64,000 nt of DNA, from IMG/VR virus record IMGVR_UViG_3300013901_000014, positions 1 through 64,000 of that record. The stretch is one strand, 5' to 3'. The DNA comes from a virus. Its lineage: Duplodnaviria; Caudoviricetes. The notes under the pieces were generated by a model. That model was not told the DNA's origin. It did not search any database and saw nothing but the letters and a program-made list of their open reading frames with translations. Positions 2,678-43,562 of this stretch are shown piece by piece. The translations under genes were made by a program, and so were the position numbers. How positions within the stretch are numbered: the first letter of the stretch is position 1; every line of letters begins with the position of its first letter.

Positions 2678-2907
2678 TTATGTGCTACTTATGTGCTACC
2701 CAAACAAGTTAAATACTACCCAAAGATTTGATTATAAACAAGTTAGTAAGTTATATAAATGAATAAGGTATTAACTGCAGAAAGAGATTATATGTGTTTG
2801 ATGATGAGTTATTTACATTGATTGTCAGTTGGTTATGAAAATCAGATGTCGAAAAATGTCGAAAAATAACGGCAATTAGCGATGCCGCTATGCTACCTTA
2901 ATGCTAC
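2678..2907. repeat. att-like region with tandem arm-type repeats
   Basis: TTATGTGCTAC x2 (2678-2699); ATGCTAC x2 with 11-bp period (2890-2907); TGTCGAAAAA x2 (about 2847-2866); AT-rich core upstream of integrase. Confidence 0.55.
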
Positions 2908-4153: not shown

Positions 4154-4843
4154 ATGGCAACAAACAAAACAATTGTAGCATTTCACATTCACCGCGGCGG
4201 CCACTTCAACAACGCAGGCCACTATGATTACATGAGTGATATTAAGAACTTCCAAGACCTGCTTGGGGTGTGTTGAGATAACGAAATCTTCTTCAATGAT
4301 ACAGATCCCGGAACAGATAAGCCGCTGACGGCGGCAGAGCAGACGATAACCGATGGCAGCGGCAGAGTATTGGTCGAGGGGGCTGACGCAATCAACGCAG
4401 AGGTCGGCTTCTTGGACTTTGATGGTGAGTATGACAGCTATGACGTGTGCTACATAGATAATTGCAGCGAGCGCGAGGAGGCGGCATTATTAACCGCCTA
4501 CAAAGCGGGCGAGGTGAGCAAATGGGACGACCGCCACGACAGCATTAAGGAATATCTCATCGACAAAGGCTTGATTATTGACGAAGAGAAGTTTAGCAAC
4601 GCGCTTTGCGGCGACAATGGCGGCGCGTGGATAGCCGAAAGCGATGATGATATGCTGCGCGTTGCTGACACGTGGGCAAAAGGTTATGTGACCTGCTATG
4701 AGCCCGCCGACGGTGAGGACTTTGACTTCGCCTGCTCGCAGGTGGACGCAGACCCCGCAAAGGTTAAACGCATCTATGGCATAGCAGAAGATGGCTCGCT
4801 TGATGACACTTTATTTGTCGCGCTTAGCGAGGACGTAGACTGA
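4154..4843 (+). pseudogene. acidic phage protein interrupted by in-frame TGA at 4274-4276
   Basis: ATG 4154 after an A-rich leader is in frame with ORF 4370-4843; a single TGA at codon 41. Confidence 0.65.
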
Positions 4844-4888
4844 TTATTAACCACGGGCGGCAACCCGCCGCCCATATTTTTTAACGAT

Positions 4889-6169: not shown

Positions 6170-7462
6170 ATGCCGAAAATAACACTACAACAGATACTCA
6201 ACCCGGCTGGCGCCCAGGGTCGGCCTGTGACCGCTGCCGCGCCCGTGTCGCAGAAACTCGCCCAGGGCAGCGACCTGAGCGAGCCGAACGCGGCCACGGC
6301 GGGCGTGCAGCCCCAGCAGCAGCCGCTGCAGATGCAGCCACAACAGCAACCGACAACGACACAGCAGCACTTCACCGCGCCAGCCCAGCCGCTGACGCAG
6401 ATGCAGAAGGACGACTTCGCAGCCGTGAACGACGCTGCGAAACCCACGAGCGTAGCGCCCGAGAGCGCACAGCAGGCGGTGAAGACACCACCCGCCACCA
6501 TGGGCGTGGGACAAGGGACAACGAAGGACGCCAACGGCGACGACACCTTCGACGAGAACCACTTCGTTAACTGGTATGTAAAGAATCATAACTACAAGCA
6601 GCCCACGCCCGAGGAACTGGCCGAGCAAGCGAAAATCGACAAGCGCAACAAGGTGATTAACGCCATCGGTGACGGCATCAGCGCGCTGAGCAACATCTAC
6701 TTTACAACCAAGGGTGCGCCGAGTCAGACGCTCACCCCTACCCTATCCAGCCGTCAGCACGACCGTTGGACGGCGCTGCAAGAGCAGGCCGAGAAGGAGC
6801 GGAAAGACTACTTTGAGGGACTTCAACGCGCACAGCAGCTCGACCTCGACGCGACCGACAAATACCGAAACTGGCGGCGGCTGCTCAGCAAGGACCGCGC
6901 GGAGCAAGACCGGAAGGACGCCATCGCGGACGCCCAGCGGGGGCGTTATAACGCAGCGGCGGCTAAGGATACGGGCATGGCGGCCTACTATGACGCGAAA
7001 GTCAAGGCACTTGAGGAGGGCCTGCCCTACGACCTCGCGGTCAAGCAGGCGCAGAAGGCGAAGCTTGAGGCTGAAGCCGACAGGGCGCGCCGCCAGGGCA
7101 CCAGCGGCAAGAAGGGCGGAAGCAGCTCGTCAGGCGGCAAAAAGAGCGGCGGCGGCAAAAAGAGCGGCTACCATATCTACAACCGCTTCACCGGCAAGGA
7201 CGAATACTACCCCAATATTGAGTCCCGCAATCAGCGCGCAGCTGATCTCGGCTACGATGTGACGCCTGACGTGTCGCGCAGCGTGACCTCAGAGGACATC
7301 GCGAGCGGGCGGAAAACGACAGATAGACGCGCGGGGACAAGCATTTCAGCGAAACTCGGAAAACAAGAGAGGGCATACAAGCAGCGCGCCGCACAACAAA
7401 AAAAATCCGCTGGCGGCTCTTACATAGACAAAAAAGCGAAAAAGAAAGTGAGTATCAAATAA
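6170..7462 (+). CDS. second ejection/internal virion protein
   Basis: 430 aa, Q/P-rich N-terminus, helical; lies between pilot-like gene and giant protein. Confidence 0.55.
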   Translation: MPKITLQQILNPAGAQGRPVTAAAPVSQKLAQGSDLSEPNAATAGVQPQQQPLQMQPQQQPTTTQQHFTAPAQPLTQMQKDDFAAVNDAAKPTSVAPESAQQAVKTPPATMGVGQGTTKDANGDDTFDENHFVNWYVKNHNYKQPTPEELAEQAKIDKRNKVINAIGDGISALSNIYFTTKGAPSQTLTPTLSSRQHDRWTALQEQAEKERKDYFEGLQRAQQLDLDATDKYRNWRRLLSKDRAEQDRKDAIADAQRGRYNAAAAKDTGMAAYYDAKVKALEEGLPYDLAVKQAQKAKLEAEADRARRQGTSGKKGGSSSSGGKKSGGGKKSGYHIYNRFTGKDEYYPNIESRNQRAADLGYDVTPDVSRSVTSEDIASGRKTTDRRAGTSISAKLGKQERAYKQRAAQQKKSAGGSYIDKKAKKKVSIK

Positions 7463-7467
7463 ATAAA

Positions 7468-10400
7468 ATGGCATACGACAGACTTTATAAACTATATGAC
7501 GCTCTTAAGGAACAGAATGCGACGAGCGTTGACAGAGAAGCATTCCACAAGCAGATGTCTGCGCCCGGATTCGAGGGCTACCAGAACCGCCTGCAGCTGT
7601 ACAAAGAGCTGAAAGCCAACGGCTACGTTGACTACCCAAACTATGAGACGTTTTCGGCGGAGCTGGGCATGCACGCGGCTGCGCCCGCCAAGGGAGCGCA
7701 GAAACATCAGCAAAGGCAGCAGACAACGCCTGCCAAACCGCAGTCCGCGAAGCCGCAGCCCACGAAGCCGCAGCAGGGGTGGACGGCGGCGCAGCGCAAG
7801 CAGGCGGAGGCGCAGCTGGAGCAAAACGCTTATGACAACGCGCGCCTCAGCCGGCAGTGGCAGCAGCAGTCGCAGAACGCCAAGCGCATGCAGCAGCGGG
7901 CGAAGCACATAGGCACTGACTTCACAGGCGACTTTCGCGCCAAGGCGGAGGCGCGGATGGCTGGCATAGCGACCCCAGAGCCTAATATGATAGGCAGCTC
8001 AAACAACGCCGCCAAGGCCACGGGCGTAGTGATAGGCGACGACGGCAGGGCGTACAATCAGTATGAGACTGATGACGGCTCACTGACGACCAACGTCGGT
8101 GACGTGATACGGGCTAACGAGACGCGCAATCTGCGTGAGAGGCTTAACCGCCACGGCCTTGACCCTGAAAATGTGACAGACGACGACATCATGAAGATGT
8201 ATGCTGACGAGGCGTACGACGCTGCGCTGCGAGCAGACAAGACGGCTAACCAGCAGGCCGTGGACGAGGACGCGGGCCGCACGCCGCTTGAGACGATGAG
8301 GCGTGCCGTGGCCAACTACGATGACCTTGATGATGAGTATAGCGATGTTGAGCGCGAAGTCAAGCGCGCCCAGCGCATCAACCCCGACGCGATGGTGGCG
8401 GAGACGCTGCGCAGAATGCCGCCCAGCGTGCTGAGTAGGCTCAGGCGGCAGTACGGCTTATATTACGAGCAGCACCCTAAGGAGTTGAAAAGGGGGCAGA
8501 ACGCGCAGCAGGCGGCTGAAGAGGCCATCAAGGGCAGCATCTATCAGCACGTGTACAACAAGCTTGTCGCAGCCAACGCGCCCAAGTCGACGCTCGAGTA
8601 TCTTATGCGCAAGATTGCCGACCAGCCGCTGTACTCGCAGCACATTGCCAACCAGACCGCGGCAGGCGCGATAACGGGCAATCACGCGCAGTATCTTGCT
8701 GACGAGCAGGCGATGAGCGCCTATGAGAACGAGCACCCCGTGACTGGCTTCTTCGGCACCGTGGGCAACATGGCCGCAGACCCGACAATGTACATCGGCG
8801 GCTGGGTCGGCAGCATGGCGAGCAAGGCCGTGGCGCGCGGAATAGGCCGCGCGGTGGTGAAGGGCGCGAGCGAGAAGATGGCCGAGCGGCTTGCGGGCCG
8901 CACACTGGCCGGGCGCATAGCGCAAGGCGTGGCGGCCGGCGCGGGCAATCTTGGCTTCTATGAGGGCTCGCACGCGGCGCTGCGGCAAGACCGCACGGGC
9001 GAGCACAGCATAGGCGATGTGCTTGCGGCAACCGGCCGCGGCGTGCTGCTGGGAGCCGCAACCGGTGTCGCCGCACCGCTCATCGGCAACGTTGCCGACA
9101 AGGTGGTGGCACGCACCGCCAGCACCGGCGGCAAGTTGGCCGTGCGGACGGGCGAAACCGCCACATCGGTGCTTGCCGAGGGCACGATATTCGCCGCGCC
9201 CGAACTGATTGAGAACGCACGACTCGCAGACGGAGACCCCAACAAGCGCAGCGGCTGGAGCATCTGGGCGGGAAGCCTGGGCACGATGGCCGGCTTCAAG
9301 GGCAAGCACCTGATTGAGAGCGCACCGCGCGTGCTGGCAGAGTTGCGCACCGACGGGGCACGCCGCGGAGTGGGCTTCGAGGGCCGTTTGCGCAACATGC
9401 TCGACCGCACGCCCGCCGACCTGCAGATGACCAATGCCGACCTGCAAGAGCTGCGCGACCGCGGATATGGAGGACTGGCAGACCTTTATGCGCAGGTGCG
9501 CCCGCCCAAACTCCCATCCACACCGCCCGAGTTTCGCACCACTCCACCGCCACTGAAGGACTATGCCCAGTATGCGCAGCCCGAGGAGCTCGGCAAGAAC
9601 AAGGACAAAGACCTTGACGGCTACTCAGCCATGCAACGGCTGATGGACGACCACAGCGTGAGCGCGGCTGTGCGCGCGAAAGCCTACTATCTGCTGACCG
9701 GCAAGATGCTGCCGATGCCCTCTGTGCTGTCGTATGACCGCACAGCCAACGATGACGGCACGATAACCATCACCGCGCTGGGAGCCGAAAACCCAATACC
9801 GGCATACGGCAGCGGCCCTAAAAGCAAGATGCAGGAGATGGGTGCTGACGTGGTTGTTCGCAAGACGTTCAAGAGTGCGAAAGAGGCCGATGTGTATGAG
9901 GCAAAAGTGCGTAGACAGATTGAGCTAAACACCGTGGACGTGGGCGAGCAGCTGCGAGAGGCACAAGTTCAAGACGATGCGCTCGATGCAGCCATAGACG
10001 CGGTGTATCCGGAAGGAAACCACGAGCTGCTGAAGAACCAGTACTGGAGCGGCAGGGTGAAGAGTATAAAGGACGCCATCGACAAGTATCTTGAGAGTCA
10101 ACTCACCGCCAACTCGCCGCACAATCCTCACACCATAAGGCGCGGCATAGAGGAGGAGTATGGCGTTGACATCGACAAGGCGCTGAAGAAGGAGCCTAAC
10201 CGCCGCACACAAGCCGAGGTGGAAGCCGTGCAGGAGTACGCCAACGAACTGTACAACTTCGGCGGCAGAGAGGAAACAGTCGAAAATGCCCAAGTTGGCG
10301 GTAGTGGCCAAGCTGGAGTGCCGCCCGCTGCTGGTGCCACATCGGAGGAGGCAGCCAAGTCCACAACCGAGAACGCCGCCGAACAGGCGCACGAGGAAGG

Positions 10401-13400
10401 GAAGAAGGCGTGGACCGACAACGACGGAGCAGACGACGACACTGCGCTGCAGGGTGCGGTAGACGAAAAGGCCGCACGCGCGCATGCAGCGCTCGACCGC
10501 TTGAACGAGTTATTTGACGAGGAGGCGGTGTCTGTCATCAAGGAAGACCCCAACGCCATGCTGAGTTCTCCAGCGCTGAGCGAGGAGCACAGGGCCGCCA
10601 TACAAGAGTATATCGAGGCCATGGCGGGGCTTGACGGCGTTAAAGAGGCCGCTCAGAAGGCTGCCGAGCAGAACCAGGCCGAGGTGGAGAACGAGGTTGT
10701 GAAGAGCACCAACAAGGAAACAAAGCTGCTGATGCCCGCCACCATGAAGGACGACAGCGGCAAGCTGGTGAGCATCTATGTTGTCGACGGCAAGCTGGTG
10801 CTGAACACCTCAGGCGGCATCGACACGCAGAAGTCAGCACAGACAATAGTAGTGTACGACCCGAATACGGGCAAGTACCGCTTCGTTGACCCGCACGACA
10901 TTCTCGAGCTTGGTCTGCCGGTATCGCCCGACACTGCCGTGCAGTCGGCCATAGACGCGATACAGCAGCGCCACAACGGCATATTCGACCACGCAGAGCA
11001 GGCCGCCCGGCAGCAGAAGTCGCTGCCCGCGCCCACAGCAGAGGGAGGTGAAGGGCCGAAGCCGCCGCGTGGACGCAAGATGGTGGTGAAATGTCTGCGA
11101 GAACTGTCAGAGGCCAAGAAGCCAATCGACAAGCTGAATGCCATCGCCAGAATTTTGTATACTGTGAAATATGGCAGTGAGGGCATAATTACACCCGAGG
11201 AGCAGGCTCTTGTCGACAAGACGCTCGCTGAACTGAAAGAAGAGGGCTACGAGATTGTGGATAAGTGGGAAGGACAGCCTTATGACGAAGGGATGAAATT
11301 AAGCTCCGATACCGAGTTTAAACTCGTTGAAGGCGAGAACATATGGGGAGTGCAAGATGGCGAGACTAAGATTGTTGGGCTGAACAAACCCGAGGTCTGG
11401 AACATGAAAGAGGAGACCACTCAATACCGCATTGGCCCTAATGGCGAGCGCATTCCCTACAAGACAAAGGGCAGACGCTTGCAGAGCGCCGCCGCTATTG
11501 TTGTCACGCGCGATGACACCGGCTGGTCGGTTACAGCGAGACGACTTGAAGAGGTCAAGGGGCGCTTGGAGCGGCTCAAGAAGGGCCAAGCGCCCACCAA
11601 GGTTATTGAGCATCTTGAGAAAGACGTGGCCGGCCTTGAGCGCCAGTTAGCCGAAGAAAAGAAGCAGGCGGCAGCGCGAGACAAGCTGAAAAGTTTGTTT
11701 ACGAATGAAGAAATTACGGCCATTAGAAAAGACCCATACGCAATGCTCGATTCGCCCGGCTTGAGCGAGGAGCACAGGGCCGCTATCCGCGAATATATAG
11801 AAGCGTACAACATCAAGAGAAAGGAACCTGAAGGCGAAGCCAGTGCTACTGGCGAGGGCATGACCGGAAGCGAGAGTACTCCTGCTCCTGAAGAGAAGCA
11901 GCCCATTCAGATGGGCTCAGGTGCGCTTGGGAGCATTCCGAAGAACGAGAAGGGCGAGCCGGTGTATGAGCAAGCCGAGCCTTCGACGGCCTGGCAGGCC
12001 ATATTAGAGCAGACTGAGGGCGACACAGACATGGCGGCCGGTGTGGTCGACAGCATGATTGCCGACAAGGAGGCCGCGGTGAAGAAGGCGAAGAAGGCCA
12101 AGCCGAAGCACGCTGACACCATTGCGGGCAAGATTGCCGCTGAGAAGGAGCGCAAGGCCGCCATCGAGCGTGCCAAGGCCGAGCTTGAGGCGTGGAAGAA
12201 GATTGCCGCCGCCAAGGCCGGGCACGAGAAAGCCGTGGCCGAGCGCAAAGCGGCTGAGGCGAAACAGCAGGAGGCAGAACAACAGACGGTGCAAGGACAG
12301 CCGACAGAACCAAAGCAAGAAGAACAGCCAAAGGCTGATGATGAGGACGCAGCAGAGCGAGCCATTGCTGTCGAAACTGATTGGAACGACAAAATTGACG
12401 ACTATATAGTAGAGCATTATCCGCACATAGACGGGACACGCGCACGCACTCCAGAGGAGCAAAAGCTGTATGATGCAGAACGCGAGGCTTTGAAGAATGA
12501 CAAGACTTATAAAGAAATGATCGCAGCACGTGATGCTGCAATAGAAAAAACTGAGGAGACGAAGCAGCAAGAACAGGAGCGGCACGAGGCCGCCGTGGAC
12601 CAGGCGGAGCAACCCACTAAACCCGAGAAAGCAGACAAGCCGGTTAAGGCTGAGCCGACAGAGGCCAAAGAGGGAAAGCAGAGCACCGAAGCCGAGGGAG
12701 AGAAACCCGACGGGCAAAATGATGGAGCCGACAGTGAGATGCCTGAGGCTGGCGAAGGCGAGGACGCGGGGAAAAATCCGTCACTGGGAGATGTGATAAG
12801 CACGCTCTATGGAAAGGGAAAGGATTTCGCGTCAAGGATTTTCAATATGAAATTCTTTGATTTTGCAAAGACGCCAGACTTCATGAAGCGACTTGGAATA
12901 ACTGGCTCGAAATTCACAATAAGATATGGCGTGATAGCGCGTCACTTCGGCAAAGACGGCTCTCATGACTTCACACAATCGGAGTGGGAGCAGCTGCCCA
13001 ACGCCATAGGACACCCATTTGCAATCACACGGCTGGCTGATAAGGAGAAGGGATTTCGCATATACACTACGTTTAAGACCGAGAAAGGCGAGTATGTTGT
13101 GGTTGGCGTTGATGTGAAGAATGCTGGGCGTGATGTGGAGGTGAACGCAATCTCTACATTATTTGGCCGCAGAAATGGCGCGCACCTATCGGAAAATGAG
13201 CAGGTGGTGTATAGAAGCGAAATAATAACTCCCGAACAGGAGTCACTTCTCAGCCGGCCCAATTCCGACCAATATCCACCTGAACGGGAGTCTTCTGAAG
13301 GCAAAGATAACGCAAGCGGGGCAGACACGCAAGAGGGCGGCGGAAAATCTGCCGTGGCGGTGAAGGAAAAGCCGGAGGAGAAGCCGAAAAAGGACGATGA

Positions 13401-16400
13401 CGACGACGGACCGGACGGGCCCACTGCCGGCGGTGCGGCCACGGGCGGCAAGGGCAAGCCGGAAAGCGACTCTGAAAGCGAGGAGGTTAAGAAGCTCCGC
13501 AAGGAATACGATGAGGCGTGTGACCATTTGGAGGATGTGATGACCGAATGGGACGACAAAATAATTGACTATATCGCTGAGCACTATCCGACTCAAGCCA
13601 CCGTTAGTGCTGAGACAAGGTCGCCTAAGGGCATAAAAGAGCGTGAGGCGATGGACAATGATCCTGTCCTGAAAAAGATGCGCGAGGAGCGTAACGCCGC
13701 TGTTAAGAAAGCCGATGAGGAGCGCTATAAGGCATTTAAAAGAATGGACGCGGCAGAGACGGGCAAGGGTGAGCAAGAGCCGGCAAGCCCGTCGGCCGCG
13801 GCAGAGCAGAAGAAGCCTGCCGAGAGGAAGATTGAGGACGTGGGCGAGCACATTGCCGGTGCGCGCAAGGACGCACTGGCCGAGCTGTCGCAGAGCGTGG
13901 CCGACGTGACGCTGGAGAGCCTGATAGAGCTGCCTGCGTCTAAGGCGTTTAAGCGGCCCGACCTGAAGAGGGCGGTGAAGGAGGGCGTGCTGCGCGAGGA
14001 GGACGCGCGGTTTGCCGAGGCGGTGATGGCCGCGTATCTGGGAGCCGCGAAGCCGAAACTGAAGGAGGGCTACAGGCGCGCCAAGAGCGAGGCTGCGGTG
14101 CGGGCGTGGGCCGAGCACGCCAAGGAGGGCGTGGACTTGCTGGCCAAGCTGTTCTCGCTTGACGAGAAGGGACGCGACAAATACATGGCCGAGGTGCGCG
14201 CCCGCAAGATGTACAGCGAGGAAGAGGTGCGGGAGCGCCAGCGGCAGCTGGAGCAGTGGAACCCCGGCAAGAAGTTCAACGGAACGTGCTATCCGCTGAA
14301 CCCGGTGGACGTGATGGCGCGCGTGATGGAGCGGCTGGGCTATGAGGCCGGGGCCAAGGTGGCGCTTCCGGTTGTGGCGGCTGCGCCCGACAGCGGCTTT
14401 GGCTATTATGTGCTGACTACGCGCAACGGCAAGACGTACTACCCCGGCAGGTGGCTGACGACCATTGACGATGTGGTGGACGAGATTGTGTATGCGGCCA
14501 AGGTGGAGAACGCGGACCCCGACACCGACCACCCCGCGGGCAAGTTCTCGGTGAAGGGTGTGGGCGAGGTGCTGACGGAGCACACCGGCAAATGGACCGT
14601 GATAACTCAGCGCAGCCTCAGTGCGCGGGTTGAACAGCACACGTTCGGCTCAAAGGAGGAGGCCGAGGCGTTTGCGGAGAAGTACAAGGCGGGCGGCAAG
14701 AACCGTTATGCCTCAGCGCCGGAAGAAGAGGTGCGCGCTGCCGGCTACACACAATACGAGATAGTGTACCGGCACGACAGCCCCACCAAGGGGACGGGTG
14801 TGTACATGCCCACGGGCAAGATGTACGGCTCTCTTGAGGAGGCTCGCGCAGCCATTGACGGGGAGCATGACGAGTTGAACGGCATTGTGAACGCCAAGTT
14901 GGCCGAGGAGAAGGGCAAAGGCGGTGAAGGCAGGAAGAAGGACTATGTGAAGATAGTGTTGTACACCGAGGACGGGCGGACGTGGAAATACGGTGTTGTG
15001 CTGGATGACAAATATGCGCCCAAGAAGACTTCGACCGGCTCCATGCCGTTCTACCTTGGTGACGGCTTCGGCACGCGGAAGGAGGCGCAGGCATTTGTGG
15101 ATAAGCACCGCGAGGAGTGGGACGCCAAAATAGCAGACATAGAGAAGGCGCGCCGCGACTTTGTGTATTTCAAAGGCACCGGCGAGCGCACCGGCCAGGA
15201 CTGGCGCAAGGGTGCTGACGTGAGTGCGGAGCAACTGATGGAGCAGTTCGGCTTCCGCGGCGTGCAGTTTGGCAACTGGACCAACCAGCGCGACCGGCAG
15301 GCTGCGGTGAACGGTGCCTTTGACGCCCTTATGGACTTGGCGCAGATATTGGGAGTGTCGCCGCGCGCGCTGAGCCTGAACGGCGAGCTTGGCCTTGCGT
15401 TCGGCTCGCGCGGCGGCGGCAGCGCGAAGGCCCACTACGAGCCGGACGAGGTGGTGATTAACCTCACCAAGACACAGGGGGCGGGCTCGCTGGCCCACGA
15501 GTGGTGGCATGCGCTGGACAACTACTTCGCGCGCCACGGCAACGTGAAGGGCGGCATGGTGACCGAGTCGAAGGGCATAGCGATGCGCGACGAGCTGCGG
15601 GAGGCGTTCAACGCCCTCATCGACAGCGTGGCGGGCAGCGACTACAACATCCGCTCGCGCCAGCGCGGCGCCAGCTATTGGGGCCGGCCCGCTGAGGAGA
15701 CCGCGAGGCTGTTTGCCGCGTGGGTGAGCGACGAGCTGCAGAAGCGCGGCTTGTCGAGTCCGTTCCTTTCTGACACCGACCCCGGTGCTGCCGAGCGGTA
15801 TGCCGAGATGATGTATCGCTTATACAAGGCGATGTATGAGAGTCGCAAGGCGGAGACCGGCGGCAAGGCGATGACTTTTGAGGAGTTCAAGAAGACGCCG
15901 CTGGCTCTGAGCGGGTTTGTGTTTCCCGGCACGGAGGAGCTTGCGGCATTCGGCGGGCATCTGCGAAACATCTTCAACACAGTTCAGGAGAAGGTGGACG
16001 GGCAGACCGGCAAGACGCTGCTGTATCACCGCGGTCCGGTGGTGGCCGAGCCCAACGAGGCCGAGCAGGCTCTGCTGGAGGCGGTGAACGGTGTGCTGAA
16101 GGACACCGGCATCGAGGTGGTGACCGACACGGACGAGGGCCAGAAAGTGCTGGACGCGGCCAACGGGAATGATGTCAAGCTGGAGGCGAGCCACAGAAGC
16201 GGGGAAGCGGAGGAGCGCAACAAGATGTGGCGCCTCATAGACCGCGCAACGGCCATGTTTACAGGCAAAACAGAGAAGGAGGCGCGTGAGGCCCGCCGCA
16301 AGGAGATGCAAAAAATCACTGCTGAGAGGAAAGAAATGTACGACAGGGTTTTGTCGGGAAACTTCGATGAAGTAACTTTGCGGCAGATAGACAACTACAT

Positions 16401-19400
16401 CGATAATTTCTCACCCTACAACAATGAATGGAGACCAATTTCTAAACGACTTCCACAGAAGGCACTACGAGGCTTGCGAAAAGGAGAACGCGCGAGTGCG
16501 GTCGATGTACTTTTCTCACGAATATCTGAAAGCGCAGTCCCAAAGAATGAACGAGCTGGTGCAGAAGGAAAGAGAAGAATTGAGGAGAAAAAGAAAGAAC
16601 TCCTCAAAAAGTGGGCAATAGCCACCGGCAACTGGCACACAAGTGTGTCGGACTTCACCGATGCCAAAGAGCCGCTTGGCAGCGGAAAAGACTCTGACGT
16701 ATACCAGTCCAAAGACGGAAAGCACGTAATCAAAGTGTCGAAAGGCAAGGACGGCCTTAAGAAGTTCCGCCCCGACATTGATGCTGTAACGCTGTTCAAC
16801 TACATATTCCCTGAAAGTAGATACGAGATTCTGGGCTATGGCGAGGTTGACGGCAAGTTCGTGAAGTTCCTCAAGCAGCCAGTAGTGGACTTCACCGGCA
16901 GCAAACCGCTGTCGGCGGAGGAGCGTGTCGCCTATATGGCCGACATGGGCTTCAAGCCCGTCAACAAGGAGAAGACCGCTTTCAGCAACGGCACTATCGT
17001 GGTTGCCGACCTGCAGGGCAACAACATCGTCAGAGACAAGTCGGGCAACATCCGCGTGATTGACGCAGACGTGAAGCTGCACACCAAGGACTTTGGCGGG
17101 CAGTACAGCTATCCGCCCGTTGAGGCCGACACCGCCCTGCCTCAAGCCAACAACGGCGGCAATGAAAAGCCGCGCATGCAGAAGGTGTACCACGGCAGTG
17201 GGGCGGACTTCGACGAGTTCGACAACTCGCACATGGGCGAGGGCGAAGGCGCGCAGGCATACGGCTGGGGCACATACGTGACCGAGGTTGAGGGAATTGG
17301 CCGGACTTATGCGAAAGCGACTGCCCGTTATGATGACAACTCGTCGGAGGAAGTGCTGAATAGGGTCGAATCTTTGGCCGCAGATTTGATTAAAGACCGC
17401 TTCGGCTTTAGGCCGGGGCTTAGCGTTTCGGCCCGCGGTGACAACTACGACTTGGAAATTCCATCGGACAAAAAGACACTGGAGCAGATTAAATCATATT
17501 TCGACGAGTATCCGTATATGTGGAATGCGAAAGTCGACAGGGAATTGAGTTCGTTCAATCTGGACGATGCCGCTTCAAGAAGAGAGTTTGCCAACTGGGT
17601 TTATGAAATTGTTGAGCCGTTTGCGGCGGACGCCGTAGGCTATGCGCAGAAAGAAGAGACCGCCTCCCGCCACCTCTATACTGTTGAAATTCCCGATGAC
17701 AACGGCGAGAACTATATTGATTATAATGGCAGGATAAGCGACATTCCATCACAGAAAATAGATGCAATATGCACGGAGCTTGAAAAACTCGGATGGAAAC
17801 GTAAGGACTTGCCGAGCATGGTAAGGCTCACGGATGGCTATGGCAATATAGTACTTAATCCCAATGCTGCGGGAGCAGACCTCTACGAGGAGATTAAGGT
17901 TGCGTTGAAGAGTCAGAAACTGGCGAGCGAACTGCTGTCAAGAGCCGGCTTTGCCGGCATAAAATACCCTGCTGAGTATATGAGCGGCGGGCGCAAGGAC
18001 GGCGCCAAGAACTATGTGATTTTCAACGAGAAGGACGCAAGGATAACCGACCACGTGCGGTTTTTCCGCACGTCCGGCGGCGAGGCCTACGGCTTCACGG
18101 TGGGCGGCAAGATATACGTGGACCCGCGCATAGCCACTGCCGACACGCCGATACACGAGTACGCCCACCTGTGGGGCGACATGATGCGCCGCGTCAACCC
18201 CAAGGCGTGGGGCGACATCGTGCGCCTGATGAAGGGCAAGGGCGGCCTTTGGGACTGGGTGAAGAAGAACTACCCGGAGCTGGAGACCGACGACGAGGTG
18301 GCCGACGAGGTGCTGGCGCAGTTCTCGGGCAAGCGCGGAGCCGAGCGGCTGCGCGAGGAGATGCGCAAGACTGCCGAGGGCAGCGGCAGCATAACCGAAA
18401 AGGCCAAAGCCATAAGCGCGCTGCAGCGGGTGAAGGAGGCCCTTGGCAGGTTTTGGCGCGGAGTGGCCGAGCTGCTGCACATACGCTTCACCACGGCCGA
18501 GGAGGTGGCCGACCGCGTGATGGCCGACCTGCTGCACGGCGTGGACCCGCGCAAGGTCTCTAACGACAACAGATACAACGAGTTTGCCGAAAAACACAAA
18601 GTAGACGCAAACGAGGTGAAGGACTATGCCACTGCCATTAAGGATGGCAACCTGATGGCCGCCAATAGGGCATTAAGTGAAATTCGCCGCACTTTGCGAG
18701 TGGCGCACAGGGAAATGAACCTGCAAGAGTTCGGCAAATTCTTTCGGCCAATAAATCAAGAACTGGCAGAGCGGTTCGGCGATATTGAAAAATTGCGTCA
18801 AGAACACATTGCAGCTGCAGAGCGAGAGCACAACGCTATGGAGGCTGCACGCAAGAAAGCCGAAGAGGAGGAAGCAAAGAAGAGGAAGCGTCAGGAAGAA
18901 TTGTCAATGCTCACTGCCGACGAGATAGACAAACGCTATGCGGAAGCCCTTGAAAGAGGCGACGAGGCGGCGGCAAGAGAGATGCTTGACGAGGCTGCAC
19001 GCCGCAATGGATATGGCGACACGGAGAGCGACTACCAGGGCGTGGGCGCATGGGTGGCCCCTTCCAACCCAGGCTATGAGAGTGATGAGGCGCGACGCGC
19101 CGATGTTGAGGACAATGCGCCTGACGTGAATTTGGAGGACATGGCGTTAGGGTACAACCTACAGCCGGATGACTATTTTACGCACCCGGAGCGTTACTCA
19201 CAGGACACGCCGCACGGACGGGAGTCGACGCAAGCCATACACGCCGCACTCGAAGCGCTGAAGAGAGGCGACAAGGATGTGAAGGTGAAGGTGTACAGAG
19301 CCGTGCCGACATCGGTGAAAGAGGGAAGTCTGAGAAACGGCGACTGGGTGACCCCATCGAGAAAGTATGCCGAGATGCACGGAAAGAGCAGGCTGGAAGG

Positions 19401-22400
19401 CAAATACCGCATCATAGAAGACGAAGTCCCGGCCAAAGACCTTTGGTGGGACGGCAACGATGCCAACGAGTTCGGATATGATGACGGCAGGGGGTACAAG
19501 TACAAGAACACCAAGAACAACAGAAAGCTGAACGACTTGGTGACGCGCGATGATGACGGCAACATCATTCCACCGTCAAAGCGTTTTAACGAGCGTGAGC
19601 AAGATGTGCGCTATTCGCTGCGCCACGTGTTTGGCGGCAACAGCGGCTATGTGGGCTACTCGATGAGCAAGCGCGCGGCGCAGGCGCGTGAGGACGGACG
19701 CTATCCGAAAACCGACTTCCGGAAGGAGTACAGCGTGACGCCGAAGACCTTTGACGCGCTTGTGGACGCTGGCGTGATTGACAGCGGCGAGTGGCACCAC
19801 ACCAGCATGTATGGCAACAAGACTCCGTTCTACGGGTGGAAGCCCATGTATGACGCAGTGTATGCCGCCAACAAAAAGGAAGTTGACAAGATGGCGCGGA
19901 CCCTCAAGATGCAGCAGACTGAGGCTGAGTTTTCGGACTACCTTGACAACGACAACCCTTACCGCTACCGTCCCACTTCGGAGGAGTACCAGAAGAAGAT
20001 GGGCGATATAGACCGGCAAGAGAGTCATGCCGCCAGAGACATAAACCTGATGTATGACGATGCCTACAACCCTGAGACCGAGCGGAAGAGGATGCAAGAG
20101 CTTCAATCGCTACGCGAAAAGAGCGGCAAACTTAAAGACGAGGTGCGCCGCCAATACCCCGAGGACGCAGCGATAGAGGCCGAAAACAGGAAAGGTGTCG
20201 ACTGGCACGTTGAGCAGATTGAGAAGCGCAACAAGGAGAGAGAAGCCCTAAGGCAGAAATTCCATGATTACTTTGACGCGAAGCGCGACGAGCTCGTGTA
20301 CGATGAGATGGAAAAGGCTGGCATACTCACTATGGGCGCGGACGGCCCGCATTGGAGCAAGCCTAAATATGCAGAGATATTCAACCATTATAAAGACGCG
20401 GCCATTGACACCATCGCAGAGGCAATGGCTGAAAGGCTGAAGAACCCCTACGACGAGGACTATGCCGAAGGGATTTCCGAATACCGGAAAGACCTGCAAA
20501 AGGTCAAGGCTGACAAATGGGCTGAAGGCAACGCCTTGAATGCAAAGTATAGGGACAAGGAGTTCCGAAAGCAACACCCTGACTACTACAAGCGAGAAAA
20601 AATGCTTGAAGAGGAAAAAGAGCGGCTCAGAGAGAAGTATGAGGCTCTTGAGGAAGATGTGCTCAAGCGTCACCCGGAGGAGTTGGAACGTAGGCAGAAA
20701 GCGTTTGAGTGGCCATCTGATGAGGAGGCGCAGCAACAAGCCCGAGAGAAACTACTTGCCGAACGCTTGCAACAGTTCTTTGAGGAAGACACCGCCGACC
20801 CGGACGAGGGGAAGAAGTTTCGTCTGCTGGACGATGACGACCCGCAGGCTCAGGAGCTGTCGCTGCCCGAAGGCGAGCCCAAGGAGACGCTTGCGCAGGC
20901 CATGGTGCGCCGCGTGAAGGAGCTGGCGGCGAAGCTTGGCGCGAAGGTGCGCATCGTCACCAGCGCCGATGATCTGCCCAAGACTCCGGGCAGCCGCCAG
21001 CGCAGGATGAAGGGCATGTATGACACCCGGACGGGCGAGGTGACAATAGTGATTGGCAACCACGAGAACCTTGCCGACGTGGAGAACACGGTGCTTCACG
21101 AGGCTGTGGGGCACAGGGGCTTTCGCGTGCTGTTTGACACCAAGGAGAAGTTCGACCACGCCATGGACGAGCTGTACCGCGTGTCGGGCGGGAAAATCAG
21201 GAAGTGGATAGACGACAAAGTGCGCAAGCTGTATGACGACGAGGTGGACCGCATAATGGAGCGCAAGCGCAAGGAGCGCCGCGCCAGGGGCGAGGGCCCG
21301 AGCGAGCACCATTTGGAGGACATGGCCGCGGCCGCCATCGAGGCGAGCAAGAAGAAGGACCAGTTCCGCCGCGAGGCCACCGAGGAATACGGCGCCCGCC
21401 TGGCTGGCCGCATAGGCGAGAAGGGCTTTGAGAAGCTGAGCGCGGAGGAGCAGACCTTCTGGGGCAGACTGAAGTCGATGCTGCAGAAGGCGCTGCAGCG
21501 ATTGGCCGAGGGGCTGAACATCACCGGCAGGCACGAGTGGACCGACAAGGACTGGGCCTACGTGCTGCACGAGGCTTACAAGCGCGAGAAGAACGGCGGC
21601 AAGCCGAGCATCTTTGACGAGGCCGACACCATAGCCATGCGCATGCGCACCGGCTTCGGCGAGGGCAAAGAGGAAGGCCGCAAGATGACCACCCTATCAG
21701 GGGAAGAGGCCAAGCAGGCTCTTAATGAGATTTTCAGCGCGGAGTCACATACGGTCAAGCCAGAGAAGATTTCGTCTCTTGCAAAGTTTAGGGATATATT
21801 CAGTAAGCCGATACGCACGTTTTTGGGTGAAGTTATAAAGGTCAAGGATGCCGTGTGGAACAAGGTCCTCCGCGAAAACCGACAGAACATTTCCGGTGCA
21901 ATACTGCCCACTTTGCAAAATGCGGACTTCGCCATCCGTGATACGGACGGAAGCATACTGTATGTGAAGCGGTTCTTGAACAGTACGGGAGAATCCACCT
22001 ATAACGTGGCGGTTGTAAACAAACATGGCGAACTGGAGGACTACATCAGTTCTGTTCACATAAAAACAAATAACAACCTGCTGAACAAAATAGGAAAAGG
22101 TGCCGAACTGCTAATACCGGAAAACCGGAATGGCTATGGGCACGAAGTCCCAAGCAGTTCAACACCCGATGCAAAGATAGACATAGAAAACGAAAGCGGC
22201 AACACTTTCGGCTCGAATAAGTACAAAAAATCTTCTGATGAGAACCCGGACGAGGGCATGATGTTCCGCGACGGTGACGATGACGACATTGGCGATGTGG
22301 ACCTTGGCGACGCTGTGGACAAGATGCGCGATGCGGCAGTGGAGAGCAACGCCAACAACCTGCAGGCCAAGCGCGAGGCGATGAAGGCCATAGGCGGCAA

Positions 22401-25400
22401 CCTGAGCAAGCTGCGTCAGGCTATGTCGCGGCAGAAGGTGTATGACAAGGGCACTGTGAAGAGCGTGACCGACATGGCGCGCGAGATGCTGCAAAACGGC
22501 ATGCTTGACAAGCTGAGCGGCTACGAGGCCAAGCGCATACTCTCGGCCGCGGCCAACGTGACGGGCGCGGAGAACACGGCCAGACAGATTAACAAGCTGA
22601 TGGACGTGATGGTGGACAACCAGCTGCGCAACGCCGGCGACACATTCGGCAAGCTGCTGCACTCCAAGGGCACGCGCGTGAACGCAAGCGGCGTGGAGGT
22701 GCAGGGCAAGCTCGACCCCGACGGCGCGGCCATAGTGGACGCCCTGAAGAAAGGCGTGCAGCTTGACAAGGAGGAGCTGAACGGGCGCATCGGCAAAGCG
22801 CTTGACAAAATCGGCAGCGAGGACAAGGTCATTGCCGACCAGGCCGCCAACGAGCTGGCCGGCCTGCAGCTGGCGTCCCGCTACGTGGAGGACATCAAGG
22901 GCAGCAAAGCCGAAGAGACAGAACTGCGCGAGAGCCTGAAAGAGGCCAAGGCGCAGAAAGACGCCGGCAAGATGAGCGCGGAGGCCTACAAGCAGTATTG
23001 CGAAGCCACCGAAGATGCCATACGACAGAACAAGATAGAGCGTGCCGACGCCTACCGACAGCTGATTGCACAGCTTGGCGGAGTGATGGGAGAAAGCGCA
23101 GAGCGCGCCAAAGCGTGGCGGGAGGCCGAAAAGCAGCGGGTGCAGGACATTCAGCACAACGCCAACTCGGACATGCAGGGCAGGCCGTGTAACGAGCACC
23201 ACAAACCATCATCACTACAGAAGTTGTGCAACAGCGACCTTATAAGGGGTCTCTTGATGCCACTTGCGACCTTTGAGCAGATGCTGCGAATGTTCGGCAA
23301 CAAGAACGTGCACGGTGAGGGCTATCTGTGGAACCGCTTTGTGCGCGGCTGGCTCCGTGCTTCGGAAAACGAATACAGCGGTTACCGCGACGCGCTGAAA
23401 GAACTTGACGACAAAGTGAGCGAGATATTCGGCAAGAAGATGCGCTGGGGCGACATATTCAGCCTTGAGCGCAAGCTGCCCACCATGGAGGTGAAGTTTT
23501 GGGACGGCGGAGAGATGAAGCCGCACACGCTGACGCAGGGCAACCTTGCATACATCTACATGGTGGACAAGATGAGCGACGGGCGCATGAAGCTGCGCGC
23601 GATGGGCATCACCGAAGGAGATGTGGAGCAAATCGCAAAAGCACTTGACCCGAAACTGAAGAAACTTGCCGACTGGATGCAGGACGAGTTCCTGGTGCAG
23701 AGGCGCAACAAGTACAACGAGGTGCACAAGCGCATGTTTGGGGCATCGATGGCCGCCATTGAGAACTACTTCCCGCTGAAGATACTCTCGGGTGCACGCA
23801 CGGAGAACGTGGATGTGGCGGACGATACCGGTGAGCCTACAATGACATCCACCACCACTGGCAGCATTGTCAAGCGCCGCCGCAACAACCTTGCGCTCGA
23901 CATCACCAATGCAGACGCATTCTCGGTAATTCTTGAGCATTTGCAAGACATGGAGCACTGGGCCGCATACTCAGAGTTTAACCGCGACCTGAACACGCTG
24001 CTATCATACAGGCGGTTCAAGAACCAGGTGATGAACATGAGCAGCGCATACGGAGCCGGTGCAACACTGTGGAAAAACTTCCGCAATGTGTGCCAGCTGG
24101 CGGCTGGTTCATACCGCCCGCCGGTGGCGACACTTGACAAGACAATGGTAAACCTCGCCAAAGGCGTGACCGCTGCAAAGATTAGCTTCAGAATATTCAC
24201 CGCCATCAAGCAGTTGCTTTCGTTCCCCGCTTATCTGCCTGACGCGAGCGCAAGGTATCTGCTTCAGAACCTTGCGAACCCAGTGGGCGCATGGAAATGG
24301 AGCATAGAGAACCTGCCGCTATTCCACAAACGATGGAACAGCCGCATGGCAGGCGACCCGCGACTGCTTAAAACTGAAATGGACTGGAAGATGTGGCGCA
24401 GCCGCGTGGTGCAAATGGCGTCAAAATACGGCATGAGCCCCAACGCATTTGTGGATGCGGTTACCGTGGCAATGGGTGCGCACGCCATCTACAAGACCAA
24501 ACTCGCCAAGTACCTCAAGCAGGGCTATGACAAGGACAAGGCCGAAGAGAAGGCGCGCCAAGACGCGGAGATTGCATACAACCAGACACAGCAGTCAAGC
24601 GAAGGTGCGTTCTTGTCGACAATGCAGGCCGACAGAACGTGGGGCAGCGTGCTGTTCACAGTGTTCCGCAACTCGGCAATGTCGTACACACGTCAGGAGT
24701 ATGACGCGCTGCGCAACCTTGCGCGCAAGTTGACCACGAAGGGGTACAAGGAAAAGAGCATTGGGTTTATGGCAAAGCAGATGGTGCGTGACGGCCTTGA
24801 CGAAAACACCGCATGGAGGAATGCAAAGCGCACATACAGCCGCTCAATATGGCGCGAGTTTGTGCGGGTGGCCACGTTCGGCTACATATTGCAGCTTGCG
24901 TGGAACCTTGGCGCATACTTGCCGTATCTGTTGCTCGGAGACAACGACGACGACAAGAAGAAGATGCTCGAAGACGCAGGACTTCACGCACTTGTTGGCA
25001 GCGTGGAGGGCTTGACTGGCGGTGACGTGCTGAGCACAGCCGGCCAGTATGCACTCACGGGCGAGGGCACTATTGGCAACTTAAAGAAGGAAATGCCACT
25101 TACCTCAGACTTGCATGCAATCTACCAGAGCTTCGACTACGATGCAGTGCAAGCCACCAACGACGTGCTGAATTTGCTTGTGCAGGCAGGCGTGGGCGTT
25201 AACCCGCAATCGCTGACCGATGCCGTGGTGGGCGTGATGGACTACTGCGAAAACAACCCGGCAGACGCGCGTGAGTGCGCATTGCTGATAGCGCGCATAT
25301 TCAACACTCCGCAGAGCCAGCTCGACAAGATTTATTTCGACGAGATAGACCTTGACGGCAGCGACGCACGCAAATTGTCGCCCAAGCAGATTGCCGAGCG

Positions 25401-25839: not shown

Positions 25840-25858
25840 CAGCAAGTAAGTAGTTAAA

Positions 25859-25906
25859 CAGAGAGTGGGTGCAATAATGACTAATATTGCACCCACACTG
25901 TTTTTG
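25859..25906 (+). terminator. terminator/attenuator between giant gene and portal
   Basis: GTGGGTGCAATA/TATTGCACCCAC 12-bp stem followed by TGTTTTT. Confidence 0.75.
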
Positions 25907-25913
25907 CATACTT

Positions 25914-27899
25914 ATGATAACAAAGAACAACGATAAGGACACAGCCGTGGTGCTGCTCAGCCTGAGCCGCGTGACACCCGAGCCCGAGCCGAGCAGCGAA
26001 GAGATGGACAGCGTGAAAGTCTCGCAGCTGCAGCAGGACAGGCGCGCGTTTGACGTGCTGATGGAGGCACAGTACTACTGGAACCAGATGGATGACTTCC
26101 GCCGTGAGCGGCAGCGCAACAAGCGCTACGCCTACGGCAAGCAGTGGGACGACCTGATTACCGTGGACGGCTGCACGATGACCGAGGAGGAATACATAAA
26201 GAAGCAGGGCAACGTGCCGCTGAAGAACAACCTCATCCGCCGCCTGATGCGCAACGTGATAGGTGTGTTCCGCAGCCAATCGAAAGAGCCGACATGCACC
26301 GCCCGCGACCGCGACGAGCAGCGGTTGGGCGAGGCGATGTCGACACTGCTGCAATGCAACATGCAGCTGAACCGCATGGACGAGTTGAATGCGCGCACTA
26401 TGGAAGAGTTTCTGATAAGCGGCATAGCAGTGCAGCGCAAGAGCTATGGCTGGAGAAATGGGCGTGAGGACTGCTGGACCGATTATGTGCAGCCGAACAA
26501 CTTCTTTATCGACAACAACATGCGCGACTTCCGCGGCTGGGACGTGGGCTTTCTTGGCGAAGTTCACGACATATCGTTTGGACAGCTGTGCGAGCAGTTT
26601 GCCTCCACTCCCGACGACTACAGACGGCTGCGCGAGATATACCGCAACGCATCGCGCAAAGACTACATAGCATCGTACGCCGCCAGCTTCGGCTACAGCA
26701 AGCTCGACAACTACGACTTCCTGTTCACCAGCGAGCCGGGCCGCTGCCGCGTAGTGGAAGTGTGGCGCAAAGAGCAGAAGCCGCGATACCGCTGCCACGA
26801 CTACCAGAACGGCGACATCTTCAAGGTGGACGAGGAAGACTACGCATCGCAGGTGCTTGCCGTGAACGAGCAGCGCATGCAGATGGGGCGCGAGTATGGC
26901 ATGGAAGATGACGACATACCGCTAATCACCGCCGAGTGGTTTATGGACGATTACTGGTACTTTTACTACCTCAGTCCGTTTGGAGACATACTGAAAGAGG
27001 GCGAAACCCCGTTTGAGCACGGCTCCCACCCTTACGTGTTTAAGGTATATCCGTTCATTGACGGAGAGATACACAGCTTTGTGGGGGACGTGATAGACCA
27101 GCAGCGGTACACCAACCGCCTGATAACACTCTACGACTGGGTGATAAGGAGCACCGCCAAGGGCGTGCTGCTTGTGCCCGAGGACTGCCTTCCCGACGGC
27201 GTGAGCATGGACGACATAGCCGAGCGGTGGTCGGAGGTGAACGGAGTGATAGCGTTCAAGCCGAGCAAGAGCGGGGCGGTGCCGAGCCAAGTAGCCAGCA
27301 ACGCCACCAACATAGGCGTCGCCGAGCTGCTGAACATGCAGCTGAAGTTCTTTGAGGACATATCGGGCGTGAACGGTGCTTTGCAGGGCAAGCCAGGCTA
27401 CAGCGGCACAAGCGCGGCACTCTACAACCAGCAGACACAGAACGCCACCACATCGCTGCTTGACTTGCTCGAAGCGTTCAGCTACTTTGTGAAAGACGGA
27501 GCATACAAGGACGTGAAGAACATCCAGCAGTTCTATGACGAGAAGCGCGTGCTGAACATTGCCGGCAAGAGCGGCGCGGCAATACAGCTCGACCCACAGA
27601 GAATACGCGACACAGAGTTTGACTTGAGCATTACCGAGAGCACGAGCACGCCAGCATACCGCACGCTTGCCAACGACATACTGATGCAGCTGTGGCAGGC
27701 TCAGGCAATCAGCGTGGAGCAGTTGCTTGAATACGGCAACTTCCCATTTGCCGACGACTTGCTGCAAAGCATTCAGTCGCAAAAAGAACAGATACAGAAC
27801 GGCCAGACACCGGAGGGCATGTCGCCGCAGCTGCAACAGCAGGTGCAGGCACAAGCCAACCCACAGGCAATGGAACGGCTACAACAATACATGCAGTGA
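25914..27899 (+). CDS. portal protein (P22/podovirus-like)
   Basis: 661 aa from ATG 25914; N-terminal YYWNQMDDFRRERQRNKRYAYGKQW; Q-rich barrel-like C-terminus; context. Confidence 0.85.
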   Translation: MITKNNDKDTAVVLLSLSRVTPEPEPSSEEMDSVKVSQLQQDRRAFDVLMEAQYYWNQMDDFRRERQRNKRYAYGKQWDDLITVDGCTMTEEEYIKKQGNVPLKNNLIRRLMRNVIGVFRSQSKEPTCTARDRDEQRLGEAMSTLLQCNMQLNRMDELNARTMEEFLISGIAVQRKSYGWRNGREDCWTDYVQPNNFFIDNNMRDFRGWDVGFLGEVHDISFGQLCEQFASTPDDYRRLREIYRNASRKDYIASYAASFGYSKLDNYDFLFTSEPGRCRVVEVWRKEQKPRYRCHDYQNGDIFKVDEEDYASQVLAVNEQRMQMGREYGMEDDDIPLITAEWFMDDYWYFYYLSPFGDILKEGETPFEHGSHPYVFKVYPFIDGEIHSFVGDVIDQQRYTNRLITLYDWVIRSTAKGVLLVPEDCLPDGVSMDDIAERWSEVNGVIAFKPSKSGAVPSQVASNATNIGVAELLNMQLKFFEDISGVNGALQGKPGYSGTSAALYNQQTQNATTSLLDLLEAFSYFVKDGAYKDVKNIQQFYDEKRVLNIAGKSGAAIQLDPQRIRDTEFDLSITESTSTPAYRTLANDILMQLWQAQAISVEQLLEYGNFPFADDLLQSIQSQKEQIQNGQTPEGMSPQLQQQVQAQANPQAMERLQQYMQ

Positions 27900-43328: not shown

Positions 43329-43332
43329 TTTT

Positions 43333-43562
43333 GGTGCATTGTTTTGAACATTGTCGGCGCTGCAAAGGGCAGCAGCCGCGGGCGGAAAAGTGCGAAAATA
43401 ATGCACCCCGGAAGCGCCCGGGAGCATTGCCGGCAAACGAATGCCGCATAAATAAAGGGCCGGCGGCTTTGCGCGCACAACTCTTATTACTTATTTATAG
43501 CGCTTTCGCAATTATTTTATTTTCAGACAGTTGTGATTTGGCCGCGAAATCGGTGCATTGTT
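43333..43562. repeat. att-like/arm-type repeats upstream of integrase B
   Basis: GGTGCATTGTT at 43333 and 43552; inverted AATGCACC at 43400. Confidence 0.5.

Follow-up and report, generated by a model that had tools for sequence, protein, structure and literature searches.

Conserved minus-strand RNA structures behind nuclease domains of a giant phage polyvalent gene: candidate cis-antisense RNAs

In type I toxin-antitoxin systems with a 3'-overlapping antisense RNA, such as the txpA/RatA and bsrG/SR4 pairs of B. subtilis, a prophage-borne, constitutively promoted and structured RNA is complementary to the end of the toxin coding sequence; the toxins are usually small membrane peptides with an mRNA of their own. 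Type III systems (ToxIN, CptIN and TenpIN) combine a structured RNA with an endoribonuclease, and RNAs of the ToxI type are tandem repeats that lie upstream of the toxin gene, on the same strand, and are cut out by the toxin. Phage lambda encodes the OOP RNA, which shares 52 bases, in antisense, with the C-terminal coding region of cII, a gene whose product is toxic when overproduced; OOP suppresses this toxicity, with cleavage of the duplex by RNase III as the proposed route (PMC5869508). In B. thetaiotaomicron the DonS family and 78 cis-antisense RNAs have been mapped, and promoters of the primary sigma factor of Bacteroidetes have TAnnTTTG as their -7 consensus and a -33 element that is often unrecognisable (PMC7366714). 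Here we describe two predicted small RNAs (RNA 1 and RNA 2) encoded on the minus strand of the gene for a giant polyvalent protein in the phage record IMGVR_UViG_3300013901_000014, of which a stretch of 64,000 nucleotides (nt), hereafter the window, was analysed. Each lies directly behind a domain assigned, more tentatively at the second site, to the PBECR class of predicted ribonucleases (RNases), as an initial annotation of the window had proposed, and each is preceded on its own strand by a promoter box of the host type. We consider that they may be cis-antisense RNAs, inherited as a cassette with the nuclease domain and regulating the message that bears it, a reading to which we give a probability of about one half.

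The host gene (7468..25839, plus strand; 6123 amino acids, from the list of open reading frames [ORFs] and their translation) lies directly 5' of a portal gene (25887-27899), and is a textbook case of the polyvalent proteins defined by Iyer, Burroughs, Anand, de Souza and Aravind in 2017, who regard such proteins as counter-defence weapons and class MuF-C, one domain of the protein described here, among the PBECR families (PMC5512222). Their account covers the protein layer only (the word 'antisense' is absent from it), and the predicted RNAs would add an RNA layer to it. In common with OOP (pO-oop-tO), each predicted RNA would be a small phage transcript that has a promoter of its own and a terminal hairpin and is antisense to a C-terminal coding end; OOP, however, covers the true 3' end of its small target gene and extends into intergenic space, whereas the two RNA genes lie wholly inside an 18-kb ORF at a domain boundary, exist in two non-identical copies and have a stem that encloses the RNA from end to end. 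OOP showed no relation to RNAs 1 and 2 in sequence or in Rfam. The type I pairs share with this locus the inheritance of toxin and antisense RNA as a unit, but the RNase domain is here fused into a multi-domain virion protein, and silencing would therefore hit the whole protein. Type III systems differ in that the present locus has no repeats, places its RNA on the opposite strand inside the gene and has a predicted nuclease of the BECR rather than the ToxN/Kid-like fold. The Bacteroides cis-antisense RNAs have in common with RNAs 1 and 2 the host clade, the TAnnTTTG -7 box, lengths in the range of about 80-130 nt and a high degree of predicted structure (PMC7366714), but they are chromosomal and act on polysaccharide utilisation loci or other host genes, and none has been described in phage polyvalent genes or tied to nuclease domains. 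A literature search of limited coverage returned no description of RNAs 1 and 2, and no Rfam family corresponds to them.

Both elements lie in the frame of the giant ORF, in different codon phases. The arms of the inverted repeat at site 1 (13228-13240 and 13281-13293) form 7 base pairs (bp), two A.A mismatches and 4 bp; those at site 2 (22099-22112 and 22153-22166) form 14 bp, or 15 bp if 22098/22167 is included. Two C.A mismatches on the plus strand at site 2 become G.U pairs on the minus strand, so that the helix is continuous only when read antisense, and its minus-strand 3' side ends in UUUU. The octamer TATCTTTG (CAAAGATA in plus-strand letters), the putative -7 box of each RNA, occupies 13302-13309 (minus) before RNA 1 and 22172-22179 (minus) before RNA 2. 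The repeats, both octamers and the antisense-only helix had all been reported by the initial annotation, and our coordinates agree with it. Predicted RNA 1 (13216..13296, minus; about 75-80 nt; derived with RNAalifold and pair counts on alignment A5, described below, and scoring 108.7 bits with covariance model R2) is a single long interrupted stem with one hairpin, composed of stems P1a (13286-13291 with 13228-13233, minus) and P1b (13276-13282 with 13237-13243, minus), hairpin P2 (13265-13272 with 13250-13257, minus; loop AAUUGGG at 13258-13264) and a U-rich 3' tail (13216-13227, minus). Its start point is placed, provisionally, by promoter spacing. Predicted RNA 2 (22089..22167, minus; about 70-78 nt; 103 bits with model R1) is Y-shaped: the site 2 arms form the closing stem P1 (22153-22166 with 22099-22112, minus), which encloses hairpins P2 (22149-22152 with 22137-22140, minus) and P3 (22125-22128 with 22117-22120, minus) and is followed by a U-rich tail (22089-22098, minus). 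Two interior hairpins in a cloverleaf-like fold had been suggested for both sites; the two hairpins exist at site 2, but site 1 has one and forms no cloverleaf. The further suggestion of a tRNA-like fold found no support, ARAGORN reporting 0 tRNA genes over 7400-25900 and an Rfam scan (E<=1) returning only three chance microRNA rows, elsewhere in the giant gene. Tandem repeats were found at neither site. Across the 78.9-kb record, which is rated complete and of which the window is part, R1 and R2 each match only their own site, with no second copy outside the giant gene.

The window alone gives a weak case, and the evidence rests on comparison with relatives. Fold z scores are -4.95 (minus) and -3.41 (plus) at site 2, and -1.86 and -0.14 at site 1; when the giant gene is shuffled among synonymous codons, 45% of the shuffles contain a stem of at least 15 bp, and by raw folding energy per 80 nt GC-rich segments around 15350, 8900 and 9050 rank far ahead of both sites. 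TAnnTTTG occurs 4 times in the giant gene against a shuffle background of roughly 5, and 30 times in the whole window against 18.6 expected per 64 kb from shuffles; the two occurrences in the giant gene away from the RNAs (20127 minus and 16373 plus) are accompanied by no structure (z +0.86 and +1.53). The frequency of long stems among shuffles, the z score of -1.86 at site 1 and the background frequency of the box, together with conservation of the tail peptides, would fit elements with no nucleic-acid function at all, a side effect of peptide-tail conservation combined with codon bias and common descent. The homologues make such an origin highly improbable, for reasons given with the comparisons that follow.

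Homologous DNA for site 2 was retrieved by a degenerate DNA pattern and by alignment-based scans (a single site 2 protein, used as query against viral and metagenome contigs, had found only a downstream fragment). The comparison comprises 22 distinct DNA versions of site 2 from viral contigs, GTDB genomes and assemblies, with no gaps in the RNA body, and 12 distinct versions of site 1; alignments A4 (17 sequences) and A6 (22 sequences) represent site 2 and A5 (10 sequences) site 1. In A6, 96.8% of pair cells are standard pairs and 10 of 21 pairs show double changes, a result reached by 0 of 500 shuffles, with 30-59% pairing when partners are slid; the smaller A4 gives 96.6% paired and 8 pairs with double changes, again equalled by none of 500 shuffles. 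Site 1 behaves likewise (93.8% paired in A5, double changes in 9 of 21 pairs, 0 of 500 shuffles reaching this), and slid controls over the three alignments give 25-59%. The 14-bp stem P1 of site 2 is kept in all 22 sequences through at least 4 complementary states (CUGCU/AGCAG, UUGUU/AACAA, UUACU/AGUAA and GGAGCAG/CUGCUCC). Compensation there pairs silent changes in codons for Gly, Ala and Leu at the domain end (GAELL) with residue replacements about 15 codons downstream (SS/NN/SN and STP/SAP/PAP), a coupling of synonymous sites to distant replacements that purely protein-level constraint cannot explain. At site 1 the outer stem is kept (CCC/CGG becoming CCT/CAG), as are the inner hairpin and its AAUUGGG loop, while the inner stem is wholly swapped (AGCCGG/CCGACC, GGTCAG/CTGACC, GAACGA/TCGTTC, GGTGAG/CTCGCC), altering residues SD to FV, FA or PR.

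The strand on which pairing is maintained can be read from cells that pair only as G.U, of which there are 28 on the minus against 4 on the plus strand in one comparison and 30 against 1 in the other (58 to 5 in total). Synonymous-codon entropy, computed among conserved, degenerate codons, is 1.26 bits in the domain body but 0.59 bits over RNA 2 (p 1.3e-4), and the corresponding values for RNA 1 are 1.13 and 0.31 bits (p 1.1e-5); the drop spans the region from the U-tract codons to the promoter box. A U-rich tract stands 3' of the closing stem in 22 of 22 site 2 sequences, and for the Ile residue encoded within it ATA is the only codon used. The aligned homologues thus carry a conserved structure with covariation on the proposed strand, and once they are included chance origin is excluded and the comparison indicates RNA-level constraint on the minus strand, in line with the earlier suggestion of such constraint. 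Elements without nucleic-acid function would leave unexplained the compensation that ties synonymous sites to replacements some 15 codons away, the stems kept while peptides change, the collapse of synonymous diversity and a box motif kept in two reading frames. The translated peptides had been regarded as low-complexity remnants; they proved to be conserved motifs (ITPEQ..LL..PNSDQY and GAELL.P..R...G....NSTP.AK(V/I)).

The box is conserved in the manner expected of a host-type antisense promoter, with no change at its six specified bases and variation confined to the two n positions. At site 1 TAnnTTTG is kept in 10 of 10 aligned homologues, with only the nn variable (CAAAGATA, CAAAGTTA, CAAAGGTA, CAAATGTA); at site 2 it is present in 21 of 21 homologues of Bacteroidales type, in the same column in 18, shifted 3 nt by an insertion in one and lying 7-8 nt further upstream in two. 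Counted over distinct Bacteroidales sequences, it precedes the stem by 5-13 nt, on the minus strand, in 21 of 21 of the site 2 type and 12 of 12 of the site 1 type. The box is read in two codon phases, xCA-AAn-nTA and xxC-AAA-nnT-A; the first, as GCA-AAG/T-nTA, encodes AK(V/I/L) or AN(V/L), and the second GKDN, DKVT, DKGS, SKDT or VKYS. The prediction that Leu after AK or AN would be encoded by TTA held in loci retrieved later. A distant relative from another assembly, which encodes a 314-amino-acid PBECR2-like protein, has the same Y-shaped RNA (L060:2028-2157, minus; z -5.68), and in it the Bacteroidetes box is replaced by a promoter of sigma-70 type (TTGACT-17-TATCAT with an upstream TG), the best of the region, on the same strand and ending about 7 nt before the stem. 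Exact TATCTTTG boxes also occur in or near intergenic regions of the window, at 1651, 4105, 5603, 42123 and 44787, where they are probably the ordinary host-type promoters of the phage.

Hairpins of this kind could act without a separate transcript, either as structure in the sense mRNA (ribosome pausing or processing) or as recombination signals in single-stranded or cruciform DNA resembling attC sites. The position of the elements exactly at the ends of domain cassettes, one of which is flanked by repeats, would suit such a role, as would the stems that form, with mismatches, on the plus strand (z -3.41 at site 2) and the G.T pairs possible in minus-strand single-stranded DNA. We nevertheless hold this to be decidedly unlikely: the 58 to 5 asymmetry argues against sense mRNA, there is no integron-type integrase context (the two integrase matches are to general phage integrase families), and neither the box conserved in two frames and its sigma-70 type replacement nor the conserved U tract with its invariant ATA codon would be explained. 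A heptamer resembling GTTRRRY, seen by eye in the site 2 stem, was considered as part of an attC-like site and rejected as coincidence, being absent at site 1 and without integron context.

The repeats directly follow predicted nuclease domains at both sites. The domain before RNA 1 is MuF_C (12952..13189, plus; amino acids 1829-1907; Pfam PF18819), a PBECR-class family whose model it matches with 34.4-39.9 bits against a curated cutoff of 27.6. The domain at site 2 (21736..22125, plus; amino acids about 4757-4886) is divergent and PBECR2-like, the link to PBECR2 running via intermediate homologues: a direct Pfam search gave no match, but a phmmer scan of 1.84 billion representatives gave matches at E 1e-4 to 1e-12 whose aligned regions are Pfam PBECR2 above threshold, and its language-model neighbours belong to PBECR2, PBECR3 and MuF_C clusters. 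An AlphaFold2 (AF2) model built from 25 sequences (predicted local distance difference test score [pLDDT] 85.8; an earlier model from 7 sequences, with pLDDT 48, was unusable) has helices followed by a four-stranded antiparallel sheet, the BECR-type topology. VIA-align gave this model weak best folds among colicin D tRNase, RelE/ParE, BrnT and CdiA-CT (Z 3.5-4.9), with colicin D tRNase at the top (Z 4.9, root mean square deviation 3.1, 77 aligned) and all rows below Z 5; Foldseek returned nothing at E<=0.001, and neither hhalign against MuF_C nor a PDB sequence search was significant. In the AF2 model the domain ends in a helix and a strand that are encoded by the same DNA as the 3' third of RNA 2.

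The association of element and domain extends to the relatives. More than 500 homologues were recovered. Each of the 86 giant homologues of the site 2 domain, and each short one examined, has the site 2 tail motif, and since every examined homologue, giant or short, carries the element, the RNA appears to travel with the domain, as the initial annotation had proposed. With R1, independent loci reach 91-116 bits, and in each case the match is antisense to the gene. R1 and R2 match one another only weakly (E 0.5-1), and these cross-hits led to two more module types, likewise with TAnnTTTG, closing stem and U tail, behind LPD13 and LPD3 domains of related genes. The third type is antisense to LPD13 tails (L009:433-562 and L027:5742-5875, both minus) and has a long closing stem; the fourth is antisense to LPD3 tails (L018:7707-7821 and L057:4939-5052, both minus), with TAAATTTG or TAATTTTG boxes and a z of -3.88 for L018. 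LPD13 resembles PBECR2, PBECR3 and MuF_C by language-model features, and two domain copies in one gene (L009 and L027) come with two RNA modules. No solo form with a module over the true end of its gene was found, and the short homologues (193-1100 amino acids) all run past the module. A 193-amino-acid solo PBECR2 on a GC-rich contig has TATCTTTG and then a 10-bp closing stem (CAAGCUGCUG/CAGCAGCUUG) in its tail (L059:1190-1290, minus), with a z of only -1.39. Around site 1, two copies of a helical segment (W-N/D-DKI-x-DYI-x-EHYP...; 12370..12594 and 13537..13755, both plus; BLASTP 43% identity, E 3e-15) bracket MuF_C and RNA 1, an arrangement that suggests a cassette inserted or exchanged by recombination between them.

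From the conserved structure, promoter box and domain linkage we infer transcription, RNA ends, target and effect along the following lines. The -7 box would be recognised by host RNA polymerase carrying the primary sigma factor of Bacteroidetes, and transcription would begin some 5 nt further on, at the closing stem or immediately ahead of it (about 13295/13296 for RNA 1 and about 22166/22167 for RNA 2). Each RNA would take up its stem-closed form (at site 2 the Y with its two hairpins, at site 1 the long interrupted hairpin), and the U-rich tract after the stem would end transcription, giving an RNA of about 75 nt. Domain and RNA would be inherited as one cassette during the reshuffling of polyvalent genes. 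The hairpin loops of the RNA would then meet the complementary hairpins of the sense mRNA, leading either to cleavage of the duplex or to a block in translation, on the pattern of OOP and cII in lambda or of the type I antitoxins with a 3' overlap, so that the toxic RNase-bearing protein would be kept silent in lysogens or until late infection. By construction each RNA is complementary to the coding end of its PBECR-type domain, covering the final secondary-structure elements and the tail, and the ORF continues beyond it.

Several points weigh against the cis-antisense reading. There is no small stand-alone toxin gene, the domain being internal to the 6123-amino-acid ORF, and an antisense RNA cannot selectively silence one domain of a fused 18-kb ORF. 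Pure antisense action would not obviously need a precise three-way junction or fully paired ends, and only the two hairpin loops are free to initiate pairing. The -33 TTTG element is not consistently present, the terminator is atypical in that its 14-bp stem encloses about 40 nt, and a simple terminator scan of L060 finds none. The four sequencing runs on record that contain the phage are DNA-like and from one study, with no RNA run among them, and no transcript is seen. On the statistical side, the homologues share descent, so that shuffle controls overstate significance, and the structure line was partly taken from the alignments on which it was then scored.

In the main alternative, the RNA would act on the protein: in the manner of a type III antitoxin it would bind the neighbouring PBECR-type domain, either inhibiting it or standing in as a pseudo-substrate, and so serve as a portable RNA immunity factor, which we consider possible rather than probable. 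The modules are tied to PBECR-class domains (MuF_C, the PBECR2-like domain and, by language-model features, the PBECR-like LPD13), each domain family has an RNA family of its own (as the weak cross-matches of R1 and R2 at E 0.5-1 indicate), and the stem-closed architecture with paired ends, which is more typical of stable protein-bound RNAs than of simple antisense RNAs, survives the switch of promoter type; a protein already injected, moreover, would be beyond the reach of an antisense RNA. A host-type promoter would allow the RNA to be made at once from the injected genome, switching off the injected RNase. Such binding is harder to reconcile with the absence of ToxI-type tandem repeats or processing sites at either site and with loops that are not anticodon-like (the ARAGORN count being 0), and we know of no RNA inhibitor of any BECR-fold RNase. 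LPD3 and LPD13, furthermore, are given no function in the survey of polyvalent proteins (PMC5512222). Were it true, the producing cell could also be protected before packaging, and toxin and RNA antidote would form a two-strand unit at a single locus, shuffled between genes, which has crossed between hosts with differing promoter types.

The RNAs could also be real and have a trans target outside the giant gene, among host or rival-phage transcripts or defence systems, the linkers then being free coding space used by mobile cassettes. Host-type promoters would permit early, factor-independent expression, and RNA effectors could ride along with proteins that are themselves counter-defence weapons (PMC5512222). 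A generic effector, however, would not be expected to show a strict positional tie to particular domain families and family-specific RNAs, and the 78.9-kb record holds no second copy outside the giant gene; we regard a trans target as unlikely.

The surroundings of the giant gene fit a temperate phage. A tyrosine integrase gene (2882-4045, plus) lies upstream and portal, head and tail genes adjoin downstream, from which we take the product to be a polyvalent virion protein of a temperate phage; it carries many effector domains and is encoded with virion genes, as polyvalent proteins are, Pfam detecting MuF_C, LPD1, Kinase-PolyVal and a weak ART-PolyVal in the 6123 residues. DNA homologous to the two sites is found in Muribaculaceae, Bacteroidaceae and Tannerellaceae assemblies, which points to Bacteroidales as the hosts; the closest genome match is a contig of a Muribaculaceae metagenome-assembled genome (L041). 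A second tyrosine-integrase gene is present at 42159-43478 (minus), and the record may combine two elements or be composite. Long open frames run antisense to the giant gene (for example, 13243-14640 and 22159-23202, both minus; up to 465 amino acids) and are probably mirror ORFs that reflect the length and bias of the coding region opposite. Raw folding energy within the gene is strongest (-45 to -51 kcal/mol per 80 nt) at 15340-15440 and 8880-9180, in GC-rich, Gly/Ala-rich coding sequence, and these values lie inside the codon-shuffle range.

The two sites illustrate dual coding cleanly, with amino-acid identity giving way to RNA pairing, and the conserved 'linker motifs' after PBECR, LPD3 and LPD13 domains may be explained partly as traces left by a promoter and an RNA helix. 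Two covariance-model families, R1 and R2, are ready for annotating gut phage genomes. If the predicted RNAs are real, polyvalent proteins, so far analysed as strings of protein domains, would contain a hidden RNA layer, and this would bear on how phages can build RNase weapons into virion proteins while sparing their own gene expression, and on how RNase domains stay safe while they are shuffled between genes.

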